Shown here piece by piece: positions 4,410-57,849 of a stretch of DNA of 64,000 nt (position 1 is the stretch's first letter; each line of letters begins with the position of its first letter). Under the pieces are notes generated by a model. That model was not told the DNA's origin, did no database searches, and saw only the letters and a program-made list of their open reading frames with translations. The position numbers and the translations under genes were made by a program. The stretch is taken from contig NW_027590187.1 in the NCBI RefSeq assembly GCF_964213995.1, positions 434,001 to 498,000 of the forward strand, read 5' to 3'. Source of the stretch: Mustelus asterias. Its lineage: Eukaryota.

Positions 4410-4775
4410 TTTTAAAAATTCATTTGTGGGACATGGGCATCGCTGACTGGCCAGCATTTAATGCACATCCTGAGTTGCCCTTGTTCAGAGGACAGTTGAG
4501 AGTCAACCACAGTGCTGTGGCTCTGGAGTCACATGACGGCCGTACCGGGTCAGGACGGCAGATTTCCTCCCTAAAGGAAGTGAACCAGATAGGATTTTCT
4601 GACAATCGACAATAGCTTCACGGTCATCAGTAGATTTTTAATTCCAGATATTTTTTTATCAAATTTAAATTCCATAAACTGCCGTGGCAGGATTTGAACC
4701 CGGGTCCCCAGAACATTAGCTGAGTTTCTGGATTAATTGCATAGTGATAATACCACTCGGCCATCACCTCCCCCA
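4410..4775 (-). mobile_element. tRNA-derived SINE, probably SacSINE1/DeuSINE type (related copies ~13590-13895 +, ~43940-44480 +, ~52860-53190 -)
   Basis: Head GGGGAGGTGATGGCCGAGTGGT...GGGTTCAAATCC (A/B boxes) and a shared body (AAATCTGGAATTAA, ACATGTGACTCCAGA..CACAGCAATGTGGTTGACTCT). The family name is recalled, not searched. Confidence 0.65.
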
Positions 4776-5080
4776 GTGTACAGATATCATTAACTGGAAG
4801 GTGAAGTAATAAAGCTAATAGTCTATGAAGGATTGGAATTTGTGTTACAGTTGGAGAAAACTCTGTTCAGACCCCATTTCGATCACTGTGTTCATCCCAG
4901 GAAGATTAGATTGGCCTTGGAGTGGGAGCAGCAGAATTTCACCAGTGATGCCAGACTCAAATGATGAGGACAGATTGCAAAGACTAGTCCTGTAATAACC
5001 TGAACATGGAAGATTAAGTGGTGATGTGAGTGAGATGTTTACAGTGAATGATTTGATAGGGTGCAGAGAGATAAACTGTT

Positions 5081-8000
5081 AGAATGAAAACAGATGGGTG
5101 ACGGTGAGAGGGGCTGGGAGAAAGCAGTCCGTGCAGGGATCCCCGGTGGTCGTACCCCTTAGCAACAAGTATTCCACTTTGGATACGGTTGAGGGGGATG
5201 ACATACCAGTGGTGAGCCGCAGTGAGAGGATCTCCAGCACTGTGTCCGTCTCTGTGGCTCGGGAGGGTAAGGGGCAGAGCGGGAGGGCTATAGTAATTGG
5301 GGACTCGTTAGTTCGAGGGATAGATAGGAGGTTCTGTGGCAGCAAAAGACACTCACGGATGGTATGTTGCCAACCGGATGCCAAGGTCCGTGACGTCACA
5401 GACCGTGTTTTCCGGATTCTGAAGGGGGAGGGGAAACAGTCACAAGTACCATTGGTACCAATGACATAGGTAAGAGAAGGGACAGGGATTTAAAGCAGGA
5501 ATTTCTGGAGCTGGGCTGGAAGCTGAGAGCCAAGACAAAACATGTGGTCATCTCTGGTACATTGCCGGTGCCACGTGATAGCGAGTTGAGGAACAGGGAG
5601 AGAGTGCAGTTAAACATGTGTTTGCAGGGATGGTGTAGGAGGGAGGGTTTCAGATACGTGGATAATTGGAACACATTCTGGGGAAGGTGGGACCTGTACA
5701 AACAGGACAGGGTGCACCTGAACCAGAGGGGCACCAATATCCTGGGAGGGAAATTTGTTACGGCTCTTCAGGGGGGTTTAAACTAATTTGTCAGGGGAGT
5801 GGGAAAAGGAGTTGTAGTCCAGAAGTCAGTGAGGGTGGTGAGGTATTGGGGAAGGTATCAGGGTCAAGGGTGGGTACCGGTAGACAGGAAGGTGGGTTGA
5901 AGTGTGTCTACTTCAATGCAAGGAGCATCCGGAACAAGGTAGATGAACTTGGGGCGTGGATTGGTACTTGGGACTACGATGTTGTGGCCATTACGGAGAC
6001 GTGGGTAGAACAAGGACAGGAATGGTTGCTGGATGTTCCGGGGTATAGATGTTTCACTAAGTGTAGGGAAGCTGGTAAAAGAGGTGGAGGAGTGGCATTG
6101 TTAATCAAGGATAGTTTAACGGCTGCGGAAAGGCACTTCGAGGGGGATCTGTTCACTGAGGTAATATGGGCTGAGGGTAGAAATAGGAAAGGAGCGGTCA
6201 CGTTGTTAGGAGTTTACTATAGGCCCCCAAATAGTAATAGAGATGTGGAGGAAGAAATTGCTAAGCAGATTATGCATATGTGTGGGGGTCACAGGGTAGT
6301 TGTCATGGGGGACTTTAACTTTCCAAATATTGATTGGAACCTTTGTAGGTCAAATAGTTCGGATGGGGCAGTTTTTGTGCAGTGTGTACAGGAGGGTTTC
6401 CTGACACAATATGTGGATAGGACGACAAGAGGTGAGGCCACATTGGATTTGGTACTGGGAAATGAACCGGGCCAAGTGTTAGATTTGGTTGTGGGAGAGC
6501 ACTTTGGAGATAGTGACCACAATTCGGTGTCTTTTGTTTTTGCAATGGCGAGGGATAGGGCCGTACGGCAGGGCAAGTTTTACAATTGGGGGAGAGGTAA
6601 TTATGATGCGATTAGGCAAGAATTAGGGGGCATAAGCTGGGAACAGAAACTGTCAGGGAAAGGAACTAATGAAAAGTGGAACTTTTTCAAGGAACAAATA
6701 CTGGATGTCCTTGATAGGTATGTCCCTGTCAGGCAGGGAGGAAATGGCCGAGTGAGGGAACCATGGTTCACGAAAGAGGTGGAATGTCTTGTGAAAAGGA
6801 AGAGGGAAGCTTATGTAGGGATGAGGAAACAAGGTTCAGATGGCTCGATTAAGGGTTACAAGTTAGCAAGGAATGAGCTGAAAAAGGGGCTTAGGAGAGC
6901 TAGGAGGGGACACAAGAAGTCGTTGGCGGGTTGGATCAAGGAAAACCCCAAGACTTTTTACTCTTATGTGAGGAATATAAGAATGACCAGGGTGAGGTTA
7001 TGGCCGGTCAAGGACAGTAGTGGGCACTTGTGTATGGAGTCAGTAGAGATAGGCGAGGTGAGGAATGAATACATTTCTTCAGTGTTCACCAAGGAGAGGG
7101 GACATGTTTTTGAGGAAGAGAAGGCGTTACAGGCTAATATCACAAATTTGATAGAATTTTTTGAGGAGGTAACTAAGTGTGTTGATGAAGGTAGGGCAGT
7201 TGATGTCATATACATGGATTTTAGTAAGGCGTTTGATAAGGTCCCCCATGGTCGGCTTATGATGAAAGTGAGGAGGTGTGGGATAGAGGGAAAATTGGCC
7301 GATTGGATAGGTAACTGGCTGTCTGATCGAAGACAGAGGGTGGTGGTCGATGGAAAATTTTCGGATTGGAGGCAGGTTGCTAGCGGAGTGCCGCAGGGAT
7401 CAGTGCTTGGTCCACTGCTCTTTGTGATTTTTATTAATGACTTAGAGGAGGGGGCTGAAGGGTGGATCAGTAAATTTGCTGATGACACCAAGCTGGGTGG
7501 AGTAGTGGATGAGGTGGAGGGGTGTTGTAGGCTGCAAAGAGACATAGATAGGATGCAAAGCTGGGCTGAAAAATGGCAAATGGAGTTTAAACCATAGAAA
7601 CCCTACAGTGCAGAAGGAGGCCATTCGGCCCATCGAGTCTGCACCGACCACAATCCCACCCAGGCCCTACCCCCACATATTTACCCGCTAATCCCTCTAA
7701 CCTACGCATCCCAGGACTCTAAGGGGCAATTTTTTACCTGGCCAATCAACCAAACCCGCACATCTTTGGACTGATAAATGTGAGGTGATTCATTTCGGTA
7801 GGACTAATTTAAATGTGGATTACAGAGTCAAAGGTAGGGTTCTGAAGACTGTAGAGGAACAGAGAGATCTTGGGGTTCATATCCACAGATCTCTAAAGGT
7901 TGCCACTCAAGTGGATAGAGCTGTGAAGAAGGCCTATAGTGTGTTAGCTTTTATTAACAGGGGGTTGGAGTTTAAGAGCCGTGGGGTTATGCTGCAACTG

Positions 8001-8550
8001 TACAGGACCTTGGTGAGACCACATTTGGAGTATTGTGTGCAGTTCTGGTCACCTCACTATAAGAAGGATGTGGAAGCGCTGGAAAGAGTGCAGAGGAGAT
8101 TTACCAGGATGCTGCCTGGTTTGGAGGGTAGGTCTTATGAGGAAAGGTTGTGGGAGCTCGGGCTGTTCTCTCTGGAGCGGAGGAGGCTGAGTGGAGACTT
8201 AATAGAGGTTTATAAAATGATGAAGGGGATAGATAGAGTGAACGTTCAAAGACTATTTCCTCGGGTGGATGGAGCTATTACAATGGGGCATAACTATAGG
8301 GTTCGTGGTGGGAGATACAGGAAGGATATCAGAGGTAGGTTCTTTACGCAGAGAGTGGTTGGGGTGTGGAATGGACTGCCTGCAGTGATAGTGGAGTCAG
8401 ACACTTTAGGAACATTTAAGCGGTTATTGGATAGGCACATGGAGCACACCAGGATGATGGGGAGTGGGATAGCTTGATCTTGGTTTCAGATAAAGCTCGG
8501 CACAACATCGTGGGCTGAAGGGTCTGTTCTGTGCTGTACTGTTCTATGTT
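5081..8550 (+). mobile_element. CR1 LINE with frameshifted esterase ORF1, ORF2 with an internal deletion, and an intact 3' end
   Basis: IVIGDSLVR esterase; endonuclease motifs [22 protein letters not shown]; RT motifs GVPQGSVLG and FADD; C-terminal ORF 7785..8477; GTTCTAT tail. Confidence 0.95.
7593..7773 (-). mobile_element. 3' fragment of an HE1-like V-SINE inserted in the CR1 RT
   Basis: Interrupts TTTAA(CC)CTGATAAATG, which is uninterrupted at ~22665-22681. Confidence 0.9.
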
Positions 8551-8916: not shown

Positions 8917-9279
8917 AATGCCCTACAATTCCAATTTATACCAATCTTACCCATGTAACTGTCTAAATGCTTTTTAAAAGACAAAATTATACCCACCTCT
9001 ACGACTGCCTCTGGCAGCTCGTTCCAGACACTCACAACTCTGTGTGTGAAAACCCTCTGGTTCTGGGTTCCTAGTCCATGAATCAGAAAAGGCTAATATA
9101 GATGTGCAGCAAATAATTAGGAATGCAAATAGAATGTTATTGCTTAATGTGAGGAATTGTCGGGAATTGATGCTTCACTTGAACAAGACGAGGTAAGACC
9201 ACATCTGGAGGGTTGTATACAGTATTGGTCCCCTTATCGAAAGAAAGATGTAAACACGTTAGAAGCAGTGTAAGTGTGC

Positions 9280-12100
9280 AATGAATACTCTCTCAATCTA
9301 TCAGCGTGTGTGCGTGAAGAATCAACTCTCTCAATCTATTACTGTATGGGTGTGGAATTAACTCTCAATCTATTAGTATGAGAGTGTGGAATTAACTCTC
9401 TTTCAATCTATTACTGTGTCTCAGTGTGTAATTAACTCTATCTTAATCTAGTGCTGTGTTTGGGTGGAATTAACCTTCTAACAATCTATTACTGTCTGTG
9501 TGTGTGGAATTAAAACTCTCTCAATCTAACAGTGTGTGTGGGTGTGGAATTAACTTTCTCTCAATCAGTTGCTGTGTGTCGGTGTGGAATTAACTTTATC
9601 TTAATCTATTACTGTGAGAGAGTGTGCAAGTAACACTGACAATCTATTAGTGTGTGGTTAACTCTCTCTCTCTCAGTCTATTACTGTGAGAGAGTGTGGA
9701 ATTAACTCTCCCTCTCAATCTATTACTGTGTGAGAGTGTGTTGAATTATCTAGCTGACAATATATTACTGTGTGTGTGTGTATGTGGAACTAACTCTCTC
9801 TCAATCTATTACTGTGTGAGAGTGTGTGGAATTAACGAGCTGACAATATATTACTGTGTGAGTGTGTGTGTGTGTATGTGTGTGTGTGGAACTAACTCTC
9901 AATCTATTACTGTGTGAGTGTGTGTGTGGTGTGTGTGGAACTAACTCTCTCTCAATCTATTACTGTGTGTGTGTGTGGAGTTGACTCTCTCAATCCATTA
10001 GTGTGTGAGAGCGGCAATTATAATTGTCTCAATCTACTACTGTGTGTCAGTGTGGCAGAAACTCTCTCTCAATCTATTACTATGTGAGAGTGTGGCAGTA
10101 ACTCTCTGACAATCTATTACTATGTGAGAGTGCAGAATTATCACTCTCTCAATCTGTTACTGTGTGTAGAATTAATTCTCTCTCAATCTATTAAGGTGTG
10201 TGTGTGTGTAATTAACCCTCTGTCAGTCTATTACTGTGTCTGAGTGTCGAATTAACTCTCTCAATATATTAGTGTGTGTGTAGAATTAACTCTCTCACTC
10301 TATTACTGTGTGTGAGTGTGGAAATGACTCTCTTCTAATACTTTACCGATTACTGTGCAGAATTAACTCTCTCAATCTATTATTGTATGTGAGTGTGGAA
10401 TTAACTCTATCCTATTACTGTGTGTGCATGTGTGTGGAATTAACTCTCTCTCAATCTATTCCTCTGTGTGATTGTGGAAGTAGCTCTCTCAATCTATTGC
10501 TGTGTGTGAAATCATAGAAATCATAGAAACCCTACAGTGCAGAAGGAGGCCATTCGGCCCATCGAGTCTGCACCGACCACAATCCCACCCAGGCCCTACC
10601 CCCACATATTTTACCTGCTAATCCCTCTAACCTACACATCTCTGGACTCTAAGGGGCAATTTTTAACCTGGCCAATCAACCTAACTTGCACATCTTTGGA
10701 CTGTGGGAGGAAACCGGAGCACCCGGAGGAAACCCACGCAGACACGAGGAGAATGTGCAAACTCCACACAGACAGTGACCCGAGCTGGGAATCGAACCTG
10801 GGACCCTGGAGCTGTGAAGCAGCAGTGCTAACCACTGTGCTACCATTGAATTAACTCTCTCGCAATCTATCACTGTGTGATTTTGGAATTAACTCTCTCT
10901 CAATCTATTGCTCTGTCAGTGTGGAATTAACTCTCTCACAATCTATTACTGAGTGTGAGTGTGGAATTAACTATCTCTCAATCTATTACTGAGTGCAAAT
11001 GTGCAAATAATACTCTCTCAATCTATTACTGTGTGAGAGGGTGGAATTAACTCACATCTATTATGAGGTGCGAGTGTGGAATTAACTCCCTCTCAATCTA
11101 TTCCTGAGAGTGTCTGGAATTAACTCTCTCTCAATCGATTACTGAGTGTGAGTGTGGAATTAATTCTCTCTCAATCTATTACTGTGTGAGAGGGTGGAAT
11201 TAACTCTCTCTCAATCTATTACTGAGTGCGAGTGTGCAAATAATACTCTCTCAATCTATTACTGTGTGAGAGGGTGGAATTAACTCCCATCTATTACTAT
11301 GCATGAGTGTGGAATTAACTCCCTCTCAATCTATTCCTCAGAGTGTGTGGAATTAACTCTCTCTCAATCGATTACTGAGTGTGAGTGTGGAATTAATTCT
11401 CTCTCAATCTATTACTGTGTGAGAGGGTGGAATTAACTCCCATCTATTACTATGCATGAGTGTGGAATTAACTCCCTCTCAATCTATTCCTGAGAGTGTG
11501 TGGAATTAACTCTCTCTCAATCTATTACTATGTGATAGTGTGGAATTAACCGTCTCAATCTGTTAGTGTGTGTGTCTGGAATTAACACCCTCTGAATTGA
11601 ATTGTGAGAGAGTGTGGAATTATCTCTCTCAATCTATTACTGTGTGCGAGTGTGCAATGAATAATCTCTCAATCTATCACTGTGTGAATGTGTAATTAAC
11701 TCTCTCTCAAACTATTACTGTGTTTCAGTGTGGAATTAACTCTCAATCTATTACTGTGTGTCAGTGTGGAATTGACTCTCTCTCAATCTATTGCACTGCG
11801 TGCGAGCGTGGAATTTACTGTCTCTCATTGTATTGTTGTGTGTGAGGATAGAAGAACTCTCTCTCAATCTATTACTGTGTGAGAGTGTGGATGTAACTCT
11901 CTCTCAATATGTTACAGTGTGAGAGTGTGAAATTGACACTCTCTCAACCAATTACTGTGTATGTGTAATTAACTCCCTCTCAAACTATTACTGAGTGTGA
12001 ATGTGGAATTAACTCTCTCTCAATCTGTTACTGTGTGATAGTGGAAATAACTCCCTAGCTATCTATTAATAATGTATGCAATTAACTGTCAGTCTCTGTT
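9280..12100. repeat. Minisatellite array, ~36-42 bp unit GTGTGGAATTAACTCTCTCTCAATCTATTACTGTGTGA
   Basis: Dozens of tandem copies with variable TG and TC tracts; the most homogeneous part is ~10850-11560. Confidence 0.95.
10512..10845 (-). mobile_element. Near full-length HE1-like V-SINE inside the minisatellite
   Basis: (TTTCTATGA)n tail, V-domain and tRNA-like head. Confidence 0.9.
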
Positions 12101-13030: not shown

Positions 13031-15118
13031 TGATGTCAATGTGGAACTAACTCTCTTAGTCTCTGTTTCAGTATTTCAGTGTGGAATTAACTTACGTTTG
13101 ACACTGCATATGAGTGCAGAACTGATTCCCTTTCCATTACTAATTTTATATGAGTGTGCAATGTCTCTGTCAGTCTCTGTTACTGTACAGGACACCTTGA
13201 TGAGAAATGTTTGGGCCCGACTGGTCTCAAATGTACTCAGGGTTAAACCCATCAGCTTTTCCTCCATCAACACTCCAGTTCAAAGCCAGCCAACAAGAAC
13301 ATACCTTCACAGAAAGTGAGACACCAATTTTCACAACCAATATCCACCCTGGTTCAAATGGATTCTTCGTCCATTTCTGGCCTCATTTCTCTGAGCAACA
13401 GCTACAATAATTCACTGGTAAAATCATGTGGCCACTGGAATTTTGAAACAAGGTGAAAATTCTGGAATACACAACAGGTCAGGTAGCATCTGCAAAGAGA
13501 GAAACAGAGTTGATGTTTCAGCTCACTGACAATCAGCATGAGATAAAACACTTCCTAATATCCACTCATGGCGGCCGCAGTTCGCACATGGGGAGGTAAT
13601 GGTGTAGTGCTATTGTCACTGGACTAGTGATCCAGTGTAATGCAATGGGAGCAAATTTTACCACAGCAGAGAGTGCAATTTGAACTAAAAAAAAATCTGG
13701 AATTAAGGTCTAATGATGACCACGTCATGACAACCGACTTCATTTACTGATGCTCCTTTAGGCAAGCAAATCTGCCCAAATTTACTGTTCTGGCCTACAT
13801 GTGACTCCAGACACACAGCAATGTGGTTGACTCTTAAGTGCCCTCTGAAATGGCCTAACAAGCCAGTGATGCCCACATCACATGAATTAATAAAAACAAT
13901 GCTCTGTGCCCCGGAAGTGCTCTATCCAGGACACTGACTTGCCCAGGCACAGCCACAGGGCAATCTGTGCTGGAACATTCCCCAGTGCCACTTGTAAAGT
14001 TTATTTATTTGTGTCACAAGTAGGGCTTACATTAACACTGCAATGAAGTTACACTGACAACTCTCTAGTCACTGCACTCTGGCGCCTGTTTGGGTACACT
14101 GAGAGAGCATTTAGCATGACCAATGACCAGAGGAAACCTATGCAGACATGGGGAGATTGTGTAGACTTCGCATCGACAGTGACCTAAGCCAGGAATCGAA
14201 CCCGGGTCCCTGGCGCAGTGAGGCAGCAGTGCTAACCACTGTACCACTCCCATTCCACCAAGCTGCCCGTGTCTTATTGAAGTTTCCCACTTTCCTCCTC
14301 ACAGTTGCCAATGCCTCCAAGATTGGTGGCGTATGGAAATGTTGAGCTTGAGTCCTGTACACCAAGGTGTGTGTCATTAATATATATCAGGAAGAGCAGA
14401 GCTCCTAAAACCGAGCCCTGGGGAACTCCACTAGAAACCTTCCTCCAGTCTGAAACACAACCATGAACCACTACTCTCTGTTTCCTCTCACTCACACTGT
14501 TCCATATGGGGCGGTGAAGATGGCCTCAGCACCCTAGCTATGACTGTAACACTGCATTCTGCACTCTCTCCTATCCTTCTCTGTGAATGGTATGCTTTGT
14601 CTGTATAGCACGCAAGAAACAATACTTTTCACTATTTACTAATACATGTGACGATAATAAATCAAATCATACCTCAATCTGAGAATGTATTTCAGATTTG
14701 GATTTGTATCAAATGTATTTGTGAATATTCACTGTGGCCATTAGTACAGTCAATTCAAAACCCCTGATTTGCGTGATGTATTTAAGTCGAATCTCAGAGT
14801 TCATTATTAATGTTCATTGTGTAACTTTTAATTAGATTCCATGTGTCAGTTTTATCATATATTTAATTTGGAGCTAAGGCTGCTCTATTGTGGGATTGAC
14901 ACTGTGATGATCTGATGGCAGGAGTCAATTTGGACTTGGATTTATGGATCCCACTATCAATGGTACTGGGTTTGATTTGATTTATTATTGTCACACGCAT
15001 TGGTATACAGTGAAAAGTATTGTTTTCTTGCGTGCTATACAGACAAAGCAGACAGTTCATACAGCACATAGAGCAGAAGAAAAGGAGAGGGTGCAGAATG
15101 TAGTGTTAAAAGTCCATT

Positions 15119-18181: not shown

Positions 18182-18221
18182 CGCCCTTTTCCAGAAAAAG
18201 TGAGTGGCTCTGAAAAGAGCC
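18182..18221 (-). terminator. Histone 3' stem-loop (18206-18221) and U7-binding HDE of H2A
   Basis: AACCCAAA-GGCTCTTTTCAGAGCC-ACTCA followed by purine-rich GAAAAGGGCG. Confidence 0.93.
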
Positions 18222-18252
18222 TTTGGGTTCATCAGATTAAAGAATGGTCGCT

Positions 18253-18905
<653 letters not shown>

Positions 18906-19715
18906 GAAAGAACAAGAGTTTCGAAAATTATACGAATAGGTAATGGTTAATTAATTTTGAGCAATGTAAGAATCTCCCTTTCTCTCCTTCCCCAGTCTAT
19001 TGTTAACCTGTATCTGGCAGGTTCTGATTTTCAGCCTGGGTTTTTCGGAAAATAAGTCGAAAATAACAAAATTTTCACGATTCATTTTTGAAAAGTTCGC
19101 AGATGCATTTATAAAACAAGAAATACATTTCAAATAAAATCTCTCAATAATTAACTGTCGAACAACAAAGTGTTTAAAACATCAGTCTGTGTTTGCACCA
19201 TTTCACATTTTATCCCAAGTTGCAGATTTGCTTTTAGAATCCTGGATCCATTCGGCGTTAATCTCGGCCCTTTTTAAAACTCGAACTCGCCGCCAGAAAG
19301 TCTCATTGACATCGTTCTGTAAACGGACGGGATGTTCTCCATATTCGTGAGAATCAAGAGGGGAGTGAACATTTTCGGTGTAAATTGACCAGTGCCGAGA
19401 CTGAGGTTCCTGCACAACCGGGGCTGATAGGGAATAAACTGATCGATTATCAAGACCAAACTGGAACAGAATTGGAAGCTGACACATTTGCTCCATTAGC
19501 TCTCTCTCCCTCTCTCAAGTCGGGGAAACGGGCCTCTGAGATCTAAGTGCAGAGGCGTACGGAAACCAATTAATTAATTAATGAAACATTATTAATCAGA
19601 CGCTGGGCGATCAACTTGCATTACTCAGTACCTATCATTGATCAACAGTAAAAACAACAATTAGATTGTTCGAGACGCTTCAGAGTGAAAGATTAATTGA
19701 AACTAAATGGATGAT

Positions 19716-19757
19716 ACAGCTTTTTCAGGGAGATTGTGAGTGGCTCTTAAAAGAGCC
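19716..19757 (-). terminator. Histone stem-loop (19742-19757) and HDE of H2B
   Basis: GGCTCTTTTAAGAGCC-ACTCA, then GAAAAAGCTGT. Confidence 0.93.
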
Positions 19758-19793
19758 GTTGTGTTTGGGATGTTATTCAGTCCATGGGGGGTT

Positions 19794-35192: not shown

Positions 35193-35274
35193 CGCTGCGA
35201 GCAGGGTTCGAACCTGCGCGGGGAAACCCCATTGGATTTCAAGTCCAACGCCTTAACCACTCGGCCATCGCAGC
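35193..35274 (-). tRNA. tRNA-Ser(TGA), apparently intact
   Basis: 82 nt; acceptor GCTGCGA/TCGCAGC fully paired; G73; long variable arm; intact A and B boxes. Confidence 0.93.
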
Positions 35275-35575
35275 TGCTTATTTGTTGTTATGATGTAACC
35301 GCCTTAGCAACATTCACAGACCTTTATCAGGCACCGGAATGATGCAGAGCACAGCGTGTGAGTTGAAATTTGTTCGTCTCCTTTTAATTTGTATCTTTGT
35401 CTCTGATCCAGAACTCATTCACTAGTTCAGACTTGTTATTCTTTTTCAATAACCTTTCATTAAAATCAAATTGAACCCGAATTCTGCATCCGAAAAATAA
35501 AGTCCACTTCATTTCAGTCAAATGGTGCGTGGAAACCGCAAGAGGGCGCCGATAATGTCCAATATACATTACCAA

Positions 35576-38729: not shown

Positions 38730-38811
38730 CGCTGGCAGCGGGGCTCGAATCTGCACGGAGAAACCCCATCGGGTTTCAAATCCAACGCCTTAACCACGCG
38801 GCCACAGCAGC
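38730..38811 (-). pseudogene. tRNA-Ser(TGA) pseudogene
   Basis: Paralog of 35193-35274 with mismatches in the acceptor, anticodon and T stems. Confidence 0.88.
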
Positions 38812-38820
38812 TGCTTATTT

Positions 38821-39056
38821 AACAAATTAAAGCAAATCACTGCGGATGCTGGAATCTGAAACCAAAAGAGAAAATGCAGGAAAATCTCAGCAAGTTTGGC
38901 AGCATCTGTAAGGAGAGAAAAGAGCTGACGTTTCGATTCCAGACGACCCGTTGTCAAAGCTTTGACAAAGAGTCATCTGGACTCGAAACGTCAGCTCTTT
39001 TCTTTCTTTACAGATGCCGTCAGACCTGCTGAGATTTTCCAGTGTTTTATCTTTTG
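38821..39056. mobile_element. Palindromic non-autonomous element, probably Penelope-derived, with two hammerhead motifs
   Basis: ~97-bp inverted arms centred on AAGCTT (38957-38962); degenerate TSD GCAG..CTTATTT; absent from the paralogous block at ~35283. Confidence 0.8.
38958..38996 (+). ncRNA. Minimal type-I hammerhead ribozyme motif, U3-A8 variant
   Basis: AGCT-TTGACAA-A-GAGTC-ATCTG-GACTC-GAAACGTC-AGCT. Confidence 0.68.
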
Positions 39057-39390
39057 GCAGATCTTATTTGTCTGAATAATGTAACCACCTCATTAAAGTT
39101 CATATTAACTTCATCAGGCACCATGATTGCGCAACGCACAGTGCGGGAGCTGAAATTTGTTCCTCTCCTTTTACTTTGAATCTTTGTGTCTGGCTGAAGA
39201 TTCATTTATTCGGTCAGAGTCTTGATTTTCTCTTCAATATTTTTCATTAAAAAAGAATTATGTCCGAACAAAAAATGAAAAAGGTATCTGCATTTTATTT
39301 CATTCCTGTCAAATGTTTCGTTCGCCCTGTTTTTGTCCACTCAGTTTAAAACACAAGAGGCCGTGGATAAGGTTCAAAATAAATGACCAA

Positions 39391-41059: not shown

Positions 41060-41710
41060 ATGACTGAAACTGCAGCCGCCGAAACGGCTCCTCCAGCCGC
41101 TCCCGCTCAAGTGAAGTCTCCCAGGAAGAAGAAGGCGGCTCCCCGACCTGCGGCAGCCGGTCCCAAGTTAGGCGAGCAGATCCTCAATGTTGTGGCGGGT
41201 TGCAGCGATCGCAAGGGGATGTCCCTGGCCGCGATAAAGAAAGCTTTGGCTGGCAGTGGAGTGGATGTGGGGAAGCGCGGCTCCCAGATCAGGTTAACTA
41301 TCAAGAGGAAGGTGGAGAAAGGCTCTCTGGCGCAGACAAAGGGACAGGGCGCCTCCGGCTCCTTCAAACTCGCTAAGAAGGAAAGCCTGGGGAAAATGGG
41401 AAAGAAGGTGAAGAAACCAACAGCCAAGAAATCTTTAGTAAAGAAAACAGCGGCCAAGAAGGTGACAACAAAGAAAGCAGCAGCCAAGAAACCCGCAGCA
41501 AAGAAAACTCCAGTGAAGAAATCAACAGTGAAGAAAACAAGCAGCAAGAAGGTGGCAACTCCAAAAAAGGTGGTGAAGAAAGCAGCCCTGAAGAAAAAGT
41601 CTCCTGTGAAGAAGGTGACGGGCGGAAAGTCTGTCAAAAAAGTGACTAAATCGAAAGCCAAACCCAAAGTGAAAGCAGCAAAAGCGAAGAAAGCGTCAGG
41701 AAAGAAGTGA
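41060..41710 (+). CDS. H1: Linker histone H1, 216 aa
   Basis: Globular domain (SLAAIKKAL...QTKGQGASGSFKL), Lys/Ala-rich tail with TPKK/SPVK sites, stem-loop downstream. Confidence 0.96.
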   Translation: MTETAAAETAPPAAPAQVKSPRKKKAAPRPAAAGPKLGEQILNVVAGCSDRKGMSLAAIKKALAGSGVDVGKRGSQIRLTIKRKVEKGSLAQTKGQGASGSFKLAKKESLGKMGKKVKKPTAKKSLVKKTAAKKVTTKKAAAKKPAAKKTPVKKSTVKKTSSKKVATPKKVVKKAALKKKSPVKKVTGGKSVKKVTKSKAKPKVKAAKAKKASGKK

Positions 41711-41746
41711 AACAACCCGAGCAAATTGTAAACCTCTGAACCCAAA

Positions 41747-41787
41747 GGCTCTTCTCAGAGCCACCCACATCTCTCAGGAAAGAGCTG
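41747..41787 (+). terminator. Histone stem-loop (41747-41762) and HDE of H1
   Basis: CCCAAA-GGCTCTTCTCAGAGCC-ACCCA, then GAAAGAGCTG. Confidence 0.95.
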
Positions 41788-42677: not shown

Positions 42678-43049
42678 AATTATTACGGGACCAGGTTTAA
42701 AAACACAAAAGAACAAAGTCACGACCCGAAACGTTAACTCTGTCTCTCTCTCTCTTCACAAAAGCTGCCGGAGCTGCTGATTATTTGCAGCATTTTCTCT
42801 TTGATTCCATATTTCAAAGCTGCGGGTTTGTGGAAACACTTGTTTGTGACGGGTTTGTGTGGGGAGCTGTGTTTCGCTTCCATTGTTAATAAACGAGTTG
42901 AAATTGGCGGTTGCAGAAACTGGAGGTGGAGATGAAAGATCAGGGGCCATTCTGTGTGTGTGTGTCAGTCCGGCTCTCTCCTCCCTCCCGCTCTGTGTTT
43001 ATTCTTCACTCTGTCTCCTCCCCTCTCTGCTCTCTCACTCCGCCTTCCC

Positions 43050-46649: not shown

Positions 46650-46731
46650 TGACGAGGATGGGATTCGAACGCACGCGTGCAGAGCACAATGGATTAGCAG
46701 TCCATCGCCTTAACCACTCGGCCACCTCGTC
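46650..46731 (-). tRNA. tRNA-Ser(GCT) variant with A73 and a T-stem mismatch
   Basis: 82 nt; two differences from the vertebrate Ser-GCT sequence as recalled. Confidence 0.88.
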
Positions 46732-46746
46732 ACGCAATAACCACCA

Positions 46747-46840
46747 AGCTTTGACAAAGGGCTCGAAATGTCAGCTCTTTTCTCTCCTTGCGGATGCTGC
46801 CAGACCTGCTGAGATTTTCTAGCGTTTTCTCTTTTGACTT
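46747..46840 (+). mobile_element. Single arm of the 38821-39056 family; hammerhead stem II partly deleted
   Basis: AGCT-TTGACAA-AGGGCTC-GAAATGTC-AGCT followed by the family body. Confidence 0.75.
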
Positions 46841-56010: not shown

Positions 56011-57849
56011 GCGCGCTAGGAATTCACTTCTCAGGTCCATACATGGATGCATGACAAGGTAGAAACGACTGGTAAGTTCAGAACTCTCGTAGTTAAAATG
56101 TCAAGAACTGTTGAGAGGAACTTCATTGATTGCAAGTCATGTTGGGGCATCTTATGTCTGTTCAGAAGGCTGTGGAAATACAAACCTTTGTGTCCTTTAT
56201 ACGGGAAACCTGTCCATCACAGAATGATCCTCCCTGTCTCTCCTCCTCATTCTCCTGTACATCTTGGAGATTAATCTCGCGGTTTTGATAGTCGGGAGAC
56301 ACATTCCACTCTATCTGTCACAGGACTGATCAGAACCTGTTCCCTGTTCCAGGGAAACATCTGCACAGAACACAACGCAAAGCTGGAAGCTGGAAATCTG
56401 AAAGAAACACAAAAAATGCTGGAAATGCTCACCAGGTGTGGCAACATTTTTGATTAATGGAGATTTCCATAAAACCAGTTCCTGAAGCAGAGCACAGCTG
56501 CACAGTTTAAAGTTTCCTTTCATCAACAATGGATGCTCCATTCTATGATTTTGAATAATTCAAATTGATAATCTGCATTGGTATTCTAGTCGCCACAGCC
56601 CTGAAAATCACTTCAGGCATTGAGGTCACCCTTGGATTTTAAACTTGAAAACCCAATCTCTATCTTTTTAAAGCTATGATTGAAACTGTATCCAATACCC
56701 GCTCAGTCCTTTGTGAAAGAGAAGGAGAATTGAAAATATATTTGAATAACTTTCCTTTGACTCAATTTGTACAGAAGCATAAAGGTGGGAATCACACACA
56801 GCACTTCATGAAACTCACCCGCAAAACATTGAAAGGTGACAGTGTTTATTCAAGGGATGGTTCTATTTATTCATTCATTATTAATGGAGAATAGAAAAGT
56901 TGGAACAGTATGCAATCTGGGCAATATAACTGATCAAAGTGAAACACAATGGATACTGGGCAGAGTAAGCCTACCATGGGCAATAGACAAAGTGAAGGTG
57001 CGACATTGACGGAGTTGTCAGATGGAGCAGGGAGTCGTTGCAGAGTGAAGGGACATAGGAAAGTAGGTGTGCTAAATGTTTAATGTTCACAGTACAAGTA
57101 GATGGTGAAATGCAGACTCCAGGCTGGATATTCAGTGGGTTCTGAAATGTGTGGAGAGACTGCGGCATCTTGGTGTGGTAAAGGTGCAATACGGATTAGG
57201 AACGCTAAATGTTTTTATATAAAATATAAATTGTTTTATATCGTCTCTCCTTGATCTTCGGACCAAGATGTATCAGTTCACACTTCCTTACATTAATTAA
57301 GTTGCAATATGTCACGTGTCTGCACATTCCACGAGCCTGTCCATATCTTCTTGAAGATTATCAATATCCTTCTCACTAAAGTTCATAATCTTTTCAAGTT
57401 TTGCACCACTGGTAAATTTTGAGATTGAAACCTGTACACCCAGATATAGGTCAATAATATCTGTCAAGAAAAGCAAGTTTCTCTTTATGTACTACCCCAA
57501 TTATAAATAGATAAAACTTTGTGTAATATATGCTTTAATAGGTTTGTACTAATAATTAAACCGTTGCATAATGAAATTCTAACCATGCTAAACAACAATG
57601 ATTCAAAATGCCACTTGGTTGAAAAGAGAATACCGACTGGTGCTAATACTTTCACTTAAAAATACTTAAAAAGCATAGCCTTGCTGATTCATGGGTATTT
57701 AAATGGTGAATACAGAGCAAAGCAGCGTACTGGTCAATTTCGAATTGGTATGGCCAACATATTTAATATTCCGAAATTCCTCCGTCCCAGGTTCAATATA
57801 ATGTGAACATTTCCTGTCTGTTGTATCCCTCTCTGTCTAAACTTCAGAC

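Follow-up and report, generated by a model that had tools for sequence, protein, structure and literature searches.

A palindrome beside a tRNA-Ser gene of Mustelus asterias as a probable insertion of two head-to-head Penelope-like element ends

What is the palindrome that lies next to a tRNA-Ser gene in the genome of Mustelus asterias, and do the two hammerhead-like motifs that meet at its centre work as ribozymes? The locus lies in a window of 64,000 nucleotides (the whole stretch of DNA that was analysed), which 12 Rfam hits identify as part of a vertebrate histone/tRNA cluster. Histone genes with 3' stem-loops occupy positions 18182-19762 and 41060-41787 of the window, with tRNA genes in between and a histone H1-like open reading frame (ORF) at 41060-41710, and long arrays of a 38-40 bp tandem repeat fill 9268-12068. 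The cluster unit repeats over several megabases of unplaced contigs.

The palindrome and its two motifs

The features on which the argument rests are the following.

38829-38961, minus strand: left arm, an inverted copy of the pLTR end that runs from the AGCT opening stem I to the long 3' end (+131), tail included (BLAST with a natural dispersed copy as query: positions 1-133 match at 93%)
38958-39057, plus strand: right arm, a pLTR-end copy that starts at that AGCT as well and stops at the short 3' end (about +99), tail absent (positions 1-100 of that query, 91%)
38958-38996, plus strand: minimal hammerhead motif, intact, with a 4-bp stem I, U3-A8 core, extra A, 5-bp stem II and ACGT palindrome
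38923-38961, minus strand: mirror hammerhead motif, damaged (stem II mismatch, C after A9)
38829-38861, minus strand: one-sided tail of about 33 nt, spanning the gap between the family's two preferred 3' ends (+94 to +102 and +129 to +131 in the 3'-end histogram)
38814-38820, plus strand: likely target-site duplication, left copy, 7 nt exact, or as much as about 12 nt if degenerate positions are included (aligned to the empty paralog)
39063-39069, plus strand: likely target-site duplication, right copy (alignment with the empty paralog)
38730-38811, minus strand: tRNA-Ser(TGA), decayed duplicate, at 28.5 bits below the Rfam tRNA cut-off of 29 bits; the insertion sits close upstream of the 5' end of this tRNA
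35193-35274, minus strand: tRNA-Ser(TGA), intact paralog (66.7 bits), whose upstream flank is the empty site
46650-46731, minus strand: tRNA-Ser(GCT) gene
46747-46836, plus strand: independent solo copy of the U3-A8 family with 9 nt of stem II deleted, 15 nt upstream of tRNA-Ser(GCT)

The element proper (38829-39057) is lopsided, its left arm exceeding the right by about 33 nt, and it contains a palindrome of two 98-nt arms (38862-38959 and 38960-39057) that are 86% complementary and abut without a spacer. On the plus strand, the motif at 38958-38996 matches its earlier description exactly, and its cut is predicted from the sequence to fall after GUC, at 38992/38993. The mirror motif that had been described on the minus strand does lie at 38923-38961 and has the central AGCT in common, but it is not intact: it carries a C in place of the A after A9, and a G-A mismatch that leaves stem II unfolded, the latter absent from most paralogs in the cluster. 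Similarly, a third copy reported at 46747 shows TTGACAA (starting at 46751) behind AGCT (46747), but it is not a hammerhead, because 9 nt of stem II and the ACGT palindrome are gone. When the plus-strand, minus-strand and 46747 copies are compared, stems I and II both fold only in the plus-strand motif. Rfam scans, run with gathering as well as E-value thresholds, call neither motif of the palindrome a hammerhead and match only hairpin-shaped microRNA models and tRNA.

The original prediction of back-to-back ribozymes that work as a pair finds no support in the strand arrangement. Since the motifs lie on opposite strands, a transcript carries one motif together with the antisense of the other, which is predicted to lock it in a hairpin; specifically, the predicted fold of the transcript is one long hairpin (-137.6 kcal/mol, z -18.6). 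The stub also comes without the TATA region and, because its promoter is missing and its transcript would fold into a hairpin, the window copy is presumably inert. The palindrome is one dead stub among thousands and ordinary as an object. A non-LTR retrozyme, which comprises at least two consecutive head-to-tail units with complete hammerheads, was also considered and rejected; the arms stand head to head on opposite strands, and there is no tandem array here.

A Penelope-like family with a U3-A8 core

In the 3.68-Gb genome, 4,490 sites scattered along the chromosomes exactly match a 30-letter pattern that includes the TTGACAA core, against 0 for the reversed control, which places the motif beyond chance. 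When the pattern is opened to either base at positions 3 and 8, the matches rise to 7,473, and a hand count of the first 100 gives 71 U3-A8, 21 C3-G8, 7 C3-A8 and 1 U3-G8. At loci picked by a motif downstream of the core, 77 arms extend into the core and differ by 6 substitutions or fewer; position by position, U3 is present in 73 of them and A8 in 72. U3-A8 is thus the family norm and not a sporadic decay of CTGACGA, and searches for CUGANGA would miss the whole family, as had been anticipated. The assignment to the Penelope-type minimal hammerheads likewise holds, with a paired 3-8, GAAA, an NUH site and the extra base after A9 all present. The notion of a double core change is not supported, since the extra base is a general feature of minimal hammerheads that also occurs in the C3-G8 families here, and U3-A8 has been published for Schistosoma Penelope-like elements (PLEs).

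The C3-G8 copies constitute a sister family whose site is GUU and whose stem I has a wobble at its base; between the two families, U3-A8 swaps with C3-G8. All fetched C3-A8 copies (5/5) and the U3-G8 copy belong to this sister family, and their sequences are consistent with single-site decay within it. Across 59 distinct rows from three families, the 3-8 pair reads U-A in 27, C-G in 24 and U-G in 1, with 7 unpaired, and 92.9% of the cells in stems I and II are paired. Between families, G-C turns into A-U at 10.1-11.1 and C-G into U-A in stem I; pairs with a two-sided change are no more frequent than in shuffles (266/500), a comparison that holds few events because it covers only three families. 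A study that exchanged the hammerhead 3-8 pair reportedly found activity retained with U3-A8. The CpG positions of the motif are the most decayed among genomic copies, as is expected without selection on these copies. Sequencing runs from seven organisms contain the U3-A8 pLTR end, so the family is likely common to related species.

Longer copies lead to the parent element. Upstream, they pass through a pyrimidine-rich 3' region and reach the end of a GIY-YIG frame, beyond which lie a C-X4-C-X2-C linker and reverse transcriptase (RT) motifs. A decayed full-length element, L141 (G000:C22:61892500-61901500, element at 4733-8322), is of Neptune type and consists of an inverted pLTR piece, a 5' pLTR, a decayed ORF and a 3' pLTR, the latter two pLTRs being direct, and all three pLTR pieces hold the U3-A8 core. 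None of the long frames of L141 starts within the pLTR, and two acceptor-like sites lie beyond the hammerhead; the ORF start of L141 may therefore require splicing. TTGACAA is found in every ORF-linked copy with a scorable core (13/20 loci in one set and 16/25 in another, the sets overlapping by two loci). The family can therefore no longer be called non-autonomous: because ORF-linked copies have the same U3-A8 core in their pLTRs, the short copies are the truncated ends of an element of autonomous type.

The affiliation of this parent follows from several traits. The RT piece yields 1,841 protein matches, the best of which are shark proteins with RVT_1, several also with GIY-YIG; on the broken and decayed frames, Pfam detects no RT and matches GIY-YIG weakly, below cut-off. 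Decayed RT/endonuclease frames occur in L141-L143 and other loci, with a CX2-5CxxC linker between RT and endonuclease and a CCHH motif with two cysteines inside GIY-YIG, and the copies display pLTRs, an inverted 5' copy, a one-sided tail and a target-site duplication. The linker and the CCHH motif define the Neptune/Nematis grouping (PMC8557442), and a 2026 preprint describes vertebrate PLEs as Neptune and Poseidon only. The parent is accordingly read, on sequence grounds, as a probable endonuclease-bearing PLE of Neptune/Nematis type, with Neptune favoured over Nematis by motifs and host range.

Arm ends, cut site and the route of insertion

Dispersed copies of the family reveal how its arms are combined. 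Among 76 dispersed insertions on contig C1, taken in list order and chosen by the motif downstream of the core, 42 hold arms in both orientations, and inverted arms are the family's commonest form. These 42 insertions comprise 32 long+short pairs, 8 that join a long arm to another kind and 2 short+short pairs, with 0 long+long. Counted from U3, the 3' ends peak twice, at about +94 to +102 and at +129 to +131. Of 119 arm 5' ends, 57 fall within the AGCT (-4 to -1) and are preceded by unrelated sequence, although BLAST end calls at the self-complementary AGCT lean to -4. In long copies, a TATA-like box stands exactly 30 nt before the A of AGCT in 28 U3-A8 and 4 sister-family copies, though the spacer differs, and 25-34 nt before AGCT in 6 further U3-A8 copies; it is absent at -30 from eight older-family copies. 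An extra G precedes the start in 7 of 12 solo family-A copies (two explicable by the flank) and in 1 of 9 sister-family copies, which is no more than suggestive of a cap mark. Ahead of AGCT, a pyrimidine tract and AG also resemble a splice acceptor. The window palindrome itself is a long+short pair with a 7-nt duplication, as seen against the empty tRNA-Ser(TGA) paralog at 35193.

Taken together, the data make it highly probable that the palindrome is one insertion, in which two truncated pLTR-end copies of a Neptune-type Penelope-like retrotransposon stand head to head at a shared AGCT, likely by way of priming on both strands and run-off at the RNA 5' end. Specifically, transcription would start at AGCT, the likely RNA start with its TATA-like box 30 nt upstream. 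Reverse transcription would then be primed from both strands of the cut target, with the family's two 3' ends marking two internal start sites used on opposite target strands, and it would run off the 5' end of an RNA that presumably remains uncut. The two resulting cDNAs could anneal through the self-complementary AGCT. The insertion was later multiplied along with the histone/tRNA cluster. In vitro, the PLE protein of the anole Poseidon element cuts and extends both strands, with two internal start sites that bound the tail and an uncut RNA template (PMC11167929), a precedent that comes from a Poseidon element and is applied here to a Neptune-type family.

Copy starts bear on the ribozyme as well, and they show no excess at the cut site in either the U3-A8 family or its C3-G8 sister. 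C17 is missing from 266 of about 10,450 U3-A8-family copies; the 30 of these that were read comprise about 22 point changes in a continuing element, 7 inverted-arm junctions (6 via AGCT microhomology) and 1 deletion, with a clean solo start at the cut site in 0/30. A two-base test, blunt because its control counts take in small deletions, gives 74 at the cut (42 with the inverted-arm signature) versus 87 at a control position for the U3-A8 family and 47 versus 90 for the sister, and the class that starts one base past the cut comprises 232 pattern matches. As read from the copies, the genomic footprint would neither prove nor exclude cleavage activity. Minimal hammerheads are described as cleaving weakly in vitro (PMC4209133), and a case is reported in which cleavage requires the element's protein (PMC11167929).

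Could the palindrome instead be a distinct non-autonomous element that is mobilised as a whole and employs both of its hammerheads? That the exact 30-nt palindromic junction occurs at 164 genome sites and that short copies far outnumber long ones would speak for it, yet junctions differ from copy to copy, dispersed palindromes have independent ends, and the sole multi-copy version of the window palindrome has 3 kb of flank in common; both motifs, moreover, cannot be sense in one transcript, and ORF-linked copies have the same U3-A8 core, all of which renders such an element very improbable. A further account has the inverted arm arise by self-priming (fold-back) on the antisense or cDNA strand, with the pile-up at AGCT due to a splice acceptor, or to stalling of the RT at the hammerhead, and not to a transcription start. 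Head-to-head PLE palindromes have been read as self-priming on an antisense template (PMC3846280), an intron of Drosophila virilis ends at the 5' end of helix I (PMC4209133), and a pyrimidine tract with AG precedes the core in both families. The short copies, however, have no common upstream exon, the TATA spacing is constant at 30 nt in two families, and the pairing of long with short arms, without a single long+long case, fits two start sites better than fold-back, so that self-priming appears unlikely. Priming from both target strands with run-off at the RNA 5' end is thus the preferred reading.

tRNA genes and known systems

Both window insertions adjoin the 5' end of a tRNA-Ser gene, as first noticed, at 17 nt from 38811 and 15 nt from 46731, the tRNA at 38811 being the decayed duplicate. 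A comparison of 38730-38820 with 35193-35290 shows that the duplicate hit by the insertion has decayed (28.5 vs 66.7 bits), whereas the paralog with the empty site is intact; the tRNA-Ser(TGA) duplicate may have been silenced by the insertion, or a copy already dead may have tolerated it. The best 40 genome matches of the locus all lie in unplaced cluster contigs, and in 30/30 of the best matches fetched the flanks are common over kilobases at 93-100% identity. Because of these common flanks, the many tRNA-adjacent copies represent one insertion amplified with the histone/tRNA cluster, and a count of the 40 best matches as separate tRNA-targeted insertions was rejected. The 46747 insertion is independent and is found at 5 of 23 sampled Ser(GCT) genes of the cluster.

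The suggestion that the element targets a position about 16 bp from tRNA genes gains no further case beyond the window. A tRNA gene within 100 bp is found at 0/13 other cluster sites and 0/76 dispersed insertions (ARAGORN at its default threshold, with one prediction about 190 bp off), and SINE heads show no excess (2/76 vs 6/290). In 834 kb of cluster with 189 tRNA-like genes, the U3-A8 and older related families occupy 15 independent sites, 2 of them within 25 bp of a tRNA gene, both from the window (P ~0.005, post hoc). Given these counts, the family does not behave as a tRNA-gene-targeting retrotransposon, in which most insertions sit at a fixed short distance.

A looser preference, in which the element or a group of related elements inserts upstream of tRNA genes in open, Pol III-active chromatin and the two window sites are no coincidence, is possible but somewhat doubtful. 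Beyond the two independent insertions at 15 and 17 nt, 6 of 12 cluster sites lie up to 400 bp upstream of a tRNA gene versus about 9% expected (P 3e-4) and 1 lies downstream, with one paralogous pair merged and two index sites dropped. Near 33 dispersed tRNA-like loci, from which tandem-array and cluster paralogs are left out, 6 related fragments fall up to 650 bp upstream and 1 downstream, such that the pooled sites number 12 upstream versus 2 downstream (P 0.006). SINE sites lack such asymmetry (4 up and 6 down of 70), and under stricter clustering 8 of 25 sites lie upstream and 0 downstream within 300 bp, compared with 3 and 5 of 70 for SINEs. Against this stand the 0/13 and 0/76 counts within 100 bp and the lack of enrichment at SINE heads; furthermore, the pool combines different families and ages (73-95% identity), pseudogenes probably make up many of the dispersed tRNA-like loci, two ambiguous sites entered the count through their nearest paralog, window sizes were set after inspection of the data, and the asymmetry between PLE and SINE is alone not significant (P 0.13). 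With small numbers, mixed families and windows chosen post hoc, a weak bias within about 400-650 bp upstream of tRNA genes is a possible lead. The joint proposition, that PLEs here favour the few hundred bp upstream of tRNA genes, in a Ty1-like Pol III preference, and that the stubs record a transcript that starts at the hammerhead's first base and serves, uncut, as template from two start sites on both strands of the target, is doubtful.

Older insertions also occur near tRNA genes. Many tRNA-Asp genes have a fragment about 290-430 bp upstream, which goes back to a single old insertion within a common cassette and was counted once. At L346-L368 (G000:C8:27.28-27.44 Mb), every unit of a tandem array (about 70 copies of about 2 kb) combines a tRNA-Asp gene with an old PLE fragment that lies about 290-390 bp upstream of it, and this tRNA-Asp cassette is also present in the histone/tRNA cluster. 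The window itself contains older, more diverged PLE-end fragments without a complete core at 13421-13519, 42723-42816 and 56385-56447, two of which lie 370-425 bp upstream of tRNA genes.

These findings have implications beyond the single locus. Specifically, the U3-A8 family offers a natural test pair for cleavage by a U3-A8 minimal hammerhead, a handy one because a C3-G8 sister with near-identical stems shares the genome. For elements whose mechanism is poorly known, the stubs add in-genome support to an insertion model in which reverse transcription has two start sites, uses both strands and runs off where the RNA begins. If the bias upstream of tRNA genes were true genome-wide, PLEs would count among the elements for which Pol III genes serve as landing zones.

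In the literature searched, no shark or vertebrate U3-A8 family was found, although supplements (e.g. figures S2-S4 of PMC4209133) may list some, nor was a report of PLEs that target tRNA genes; the table of tRNA-targeting elements in PMC5911963, in its available part, includes no PLE. The two window insertions, at 15-17 nt upstream of tRNA genes, resemble those of Ty1, Ty3 and TRE5 as described in PMC5911963, and the possible broad upstream window resembles Ty1; whereas these elements sit mostly at tRNA genes, the U3-A8 family is dispersed genome-wide and at most weakly biased. As insertions, the stubs conform to standard PLE anatomy, in which an inverted 5'-truncated copy, a one-sided 30-40 bp tail and a target-site duplication recur (PMC3846280; 10.1101/2021.04.23.441226 / PMC8557442). 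They share with the endonuclease-bearing PLE insertions of PMC3846280 and PMC8557442 the inverted 5'-end copy, the tail on one end and the short duplication, and a TATA-like box in the pLTR is likewise reported there for a rotifer PLE family; unlike those insertions, both halves here measure about 100-135 nt and end at the hammerhead's first bases. The long+short arms are matched by Anolis Poseidon (Frangieh et al. 2024, PMC11167929), with its two internal RT starts bounding the tail, its use of both strands and its uncut RNA, although it belongs to another clade, has a C3-G8 core and starts its ORF inside the hammerhead, and the available part of that account does not describe palindromic stubs.

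The hammerheads themselves find their counterpart in the metazoan PLE minimal hammerheads of Cervera and De la Pena 2014 (PMC4209133), who report about 1,300 U3-A8 minimal hammerheads in Schistosoma, including the Cercyon elements of Schistosoma mansoni, as well as a general extra base after A9, the palindrome and opposite-strand pairs. Published descriptions (PMC4209133, PMC3846280) already cover the U3-A8 core, the additional base that follows A9, pairs on opposite strands and the tail on one side. The window motifs share with that class the absence of helix III, the palindromic 15.2-16.2, the extra base between 9 and 10.1, G10.1-C11.1, a 4-bp helix I, the pLTR location, the opposite-strand pairs and the prevalence of single truncated copies, whereas helix II measures 5 bp here and 7-8 there. 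The U3-A8 core is common to the window family and the Cercyon minimal hammerheads; unlike Cercyon, the present family is a vertebrate (shark-like) one of Neptune type, which numbers at least 4,490 exact copies and coexists with a C3-G8 sister family.
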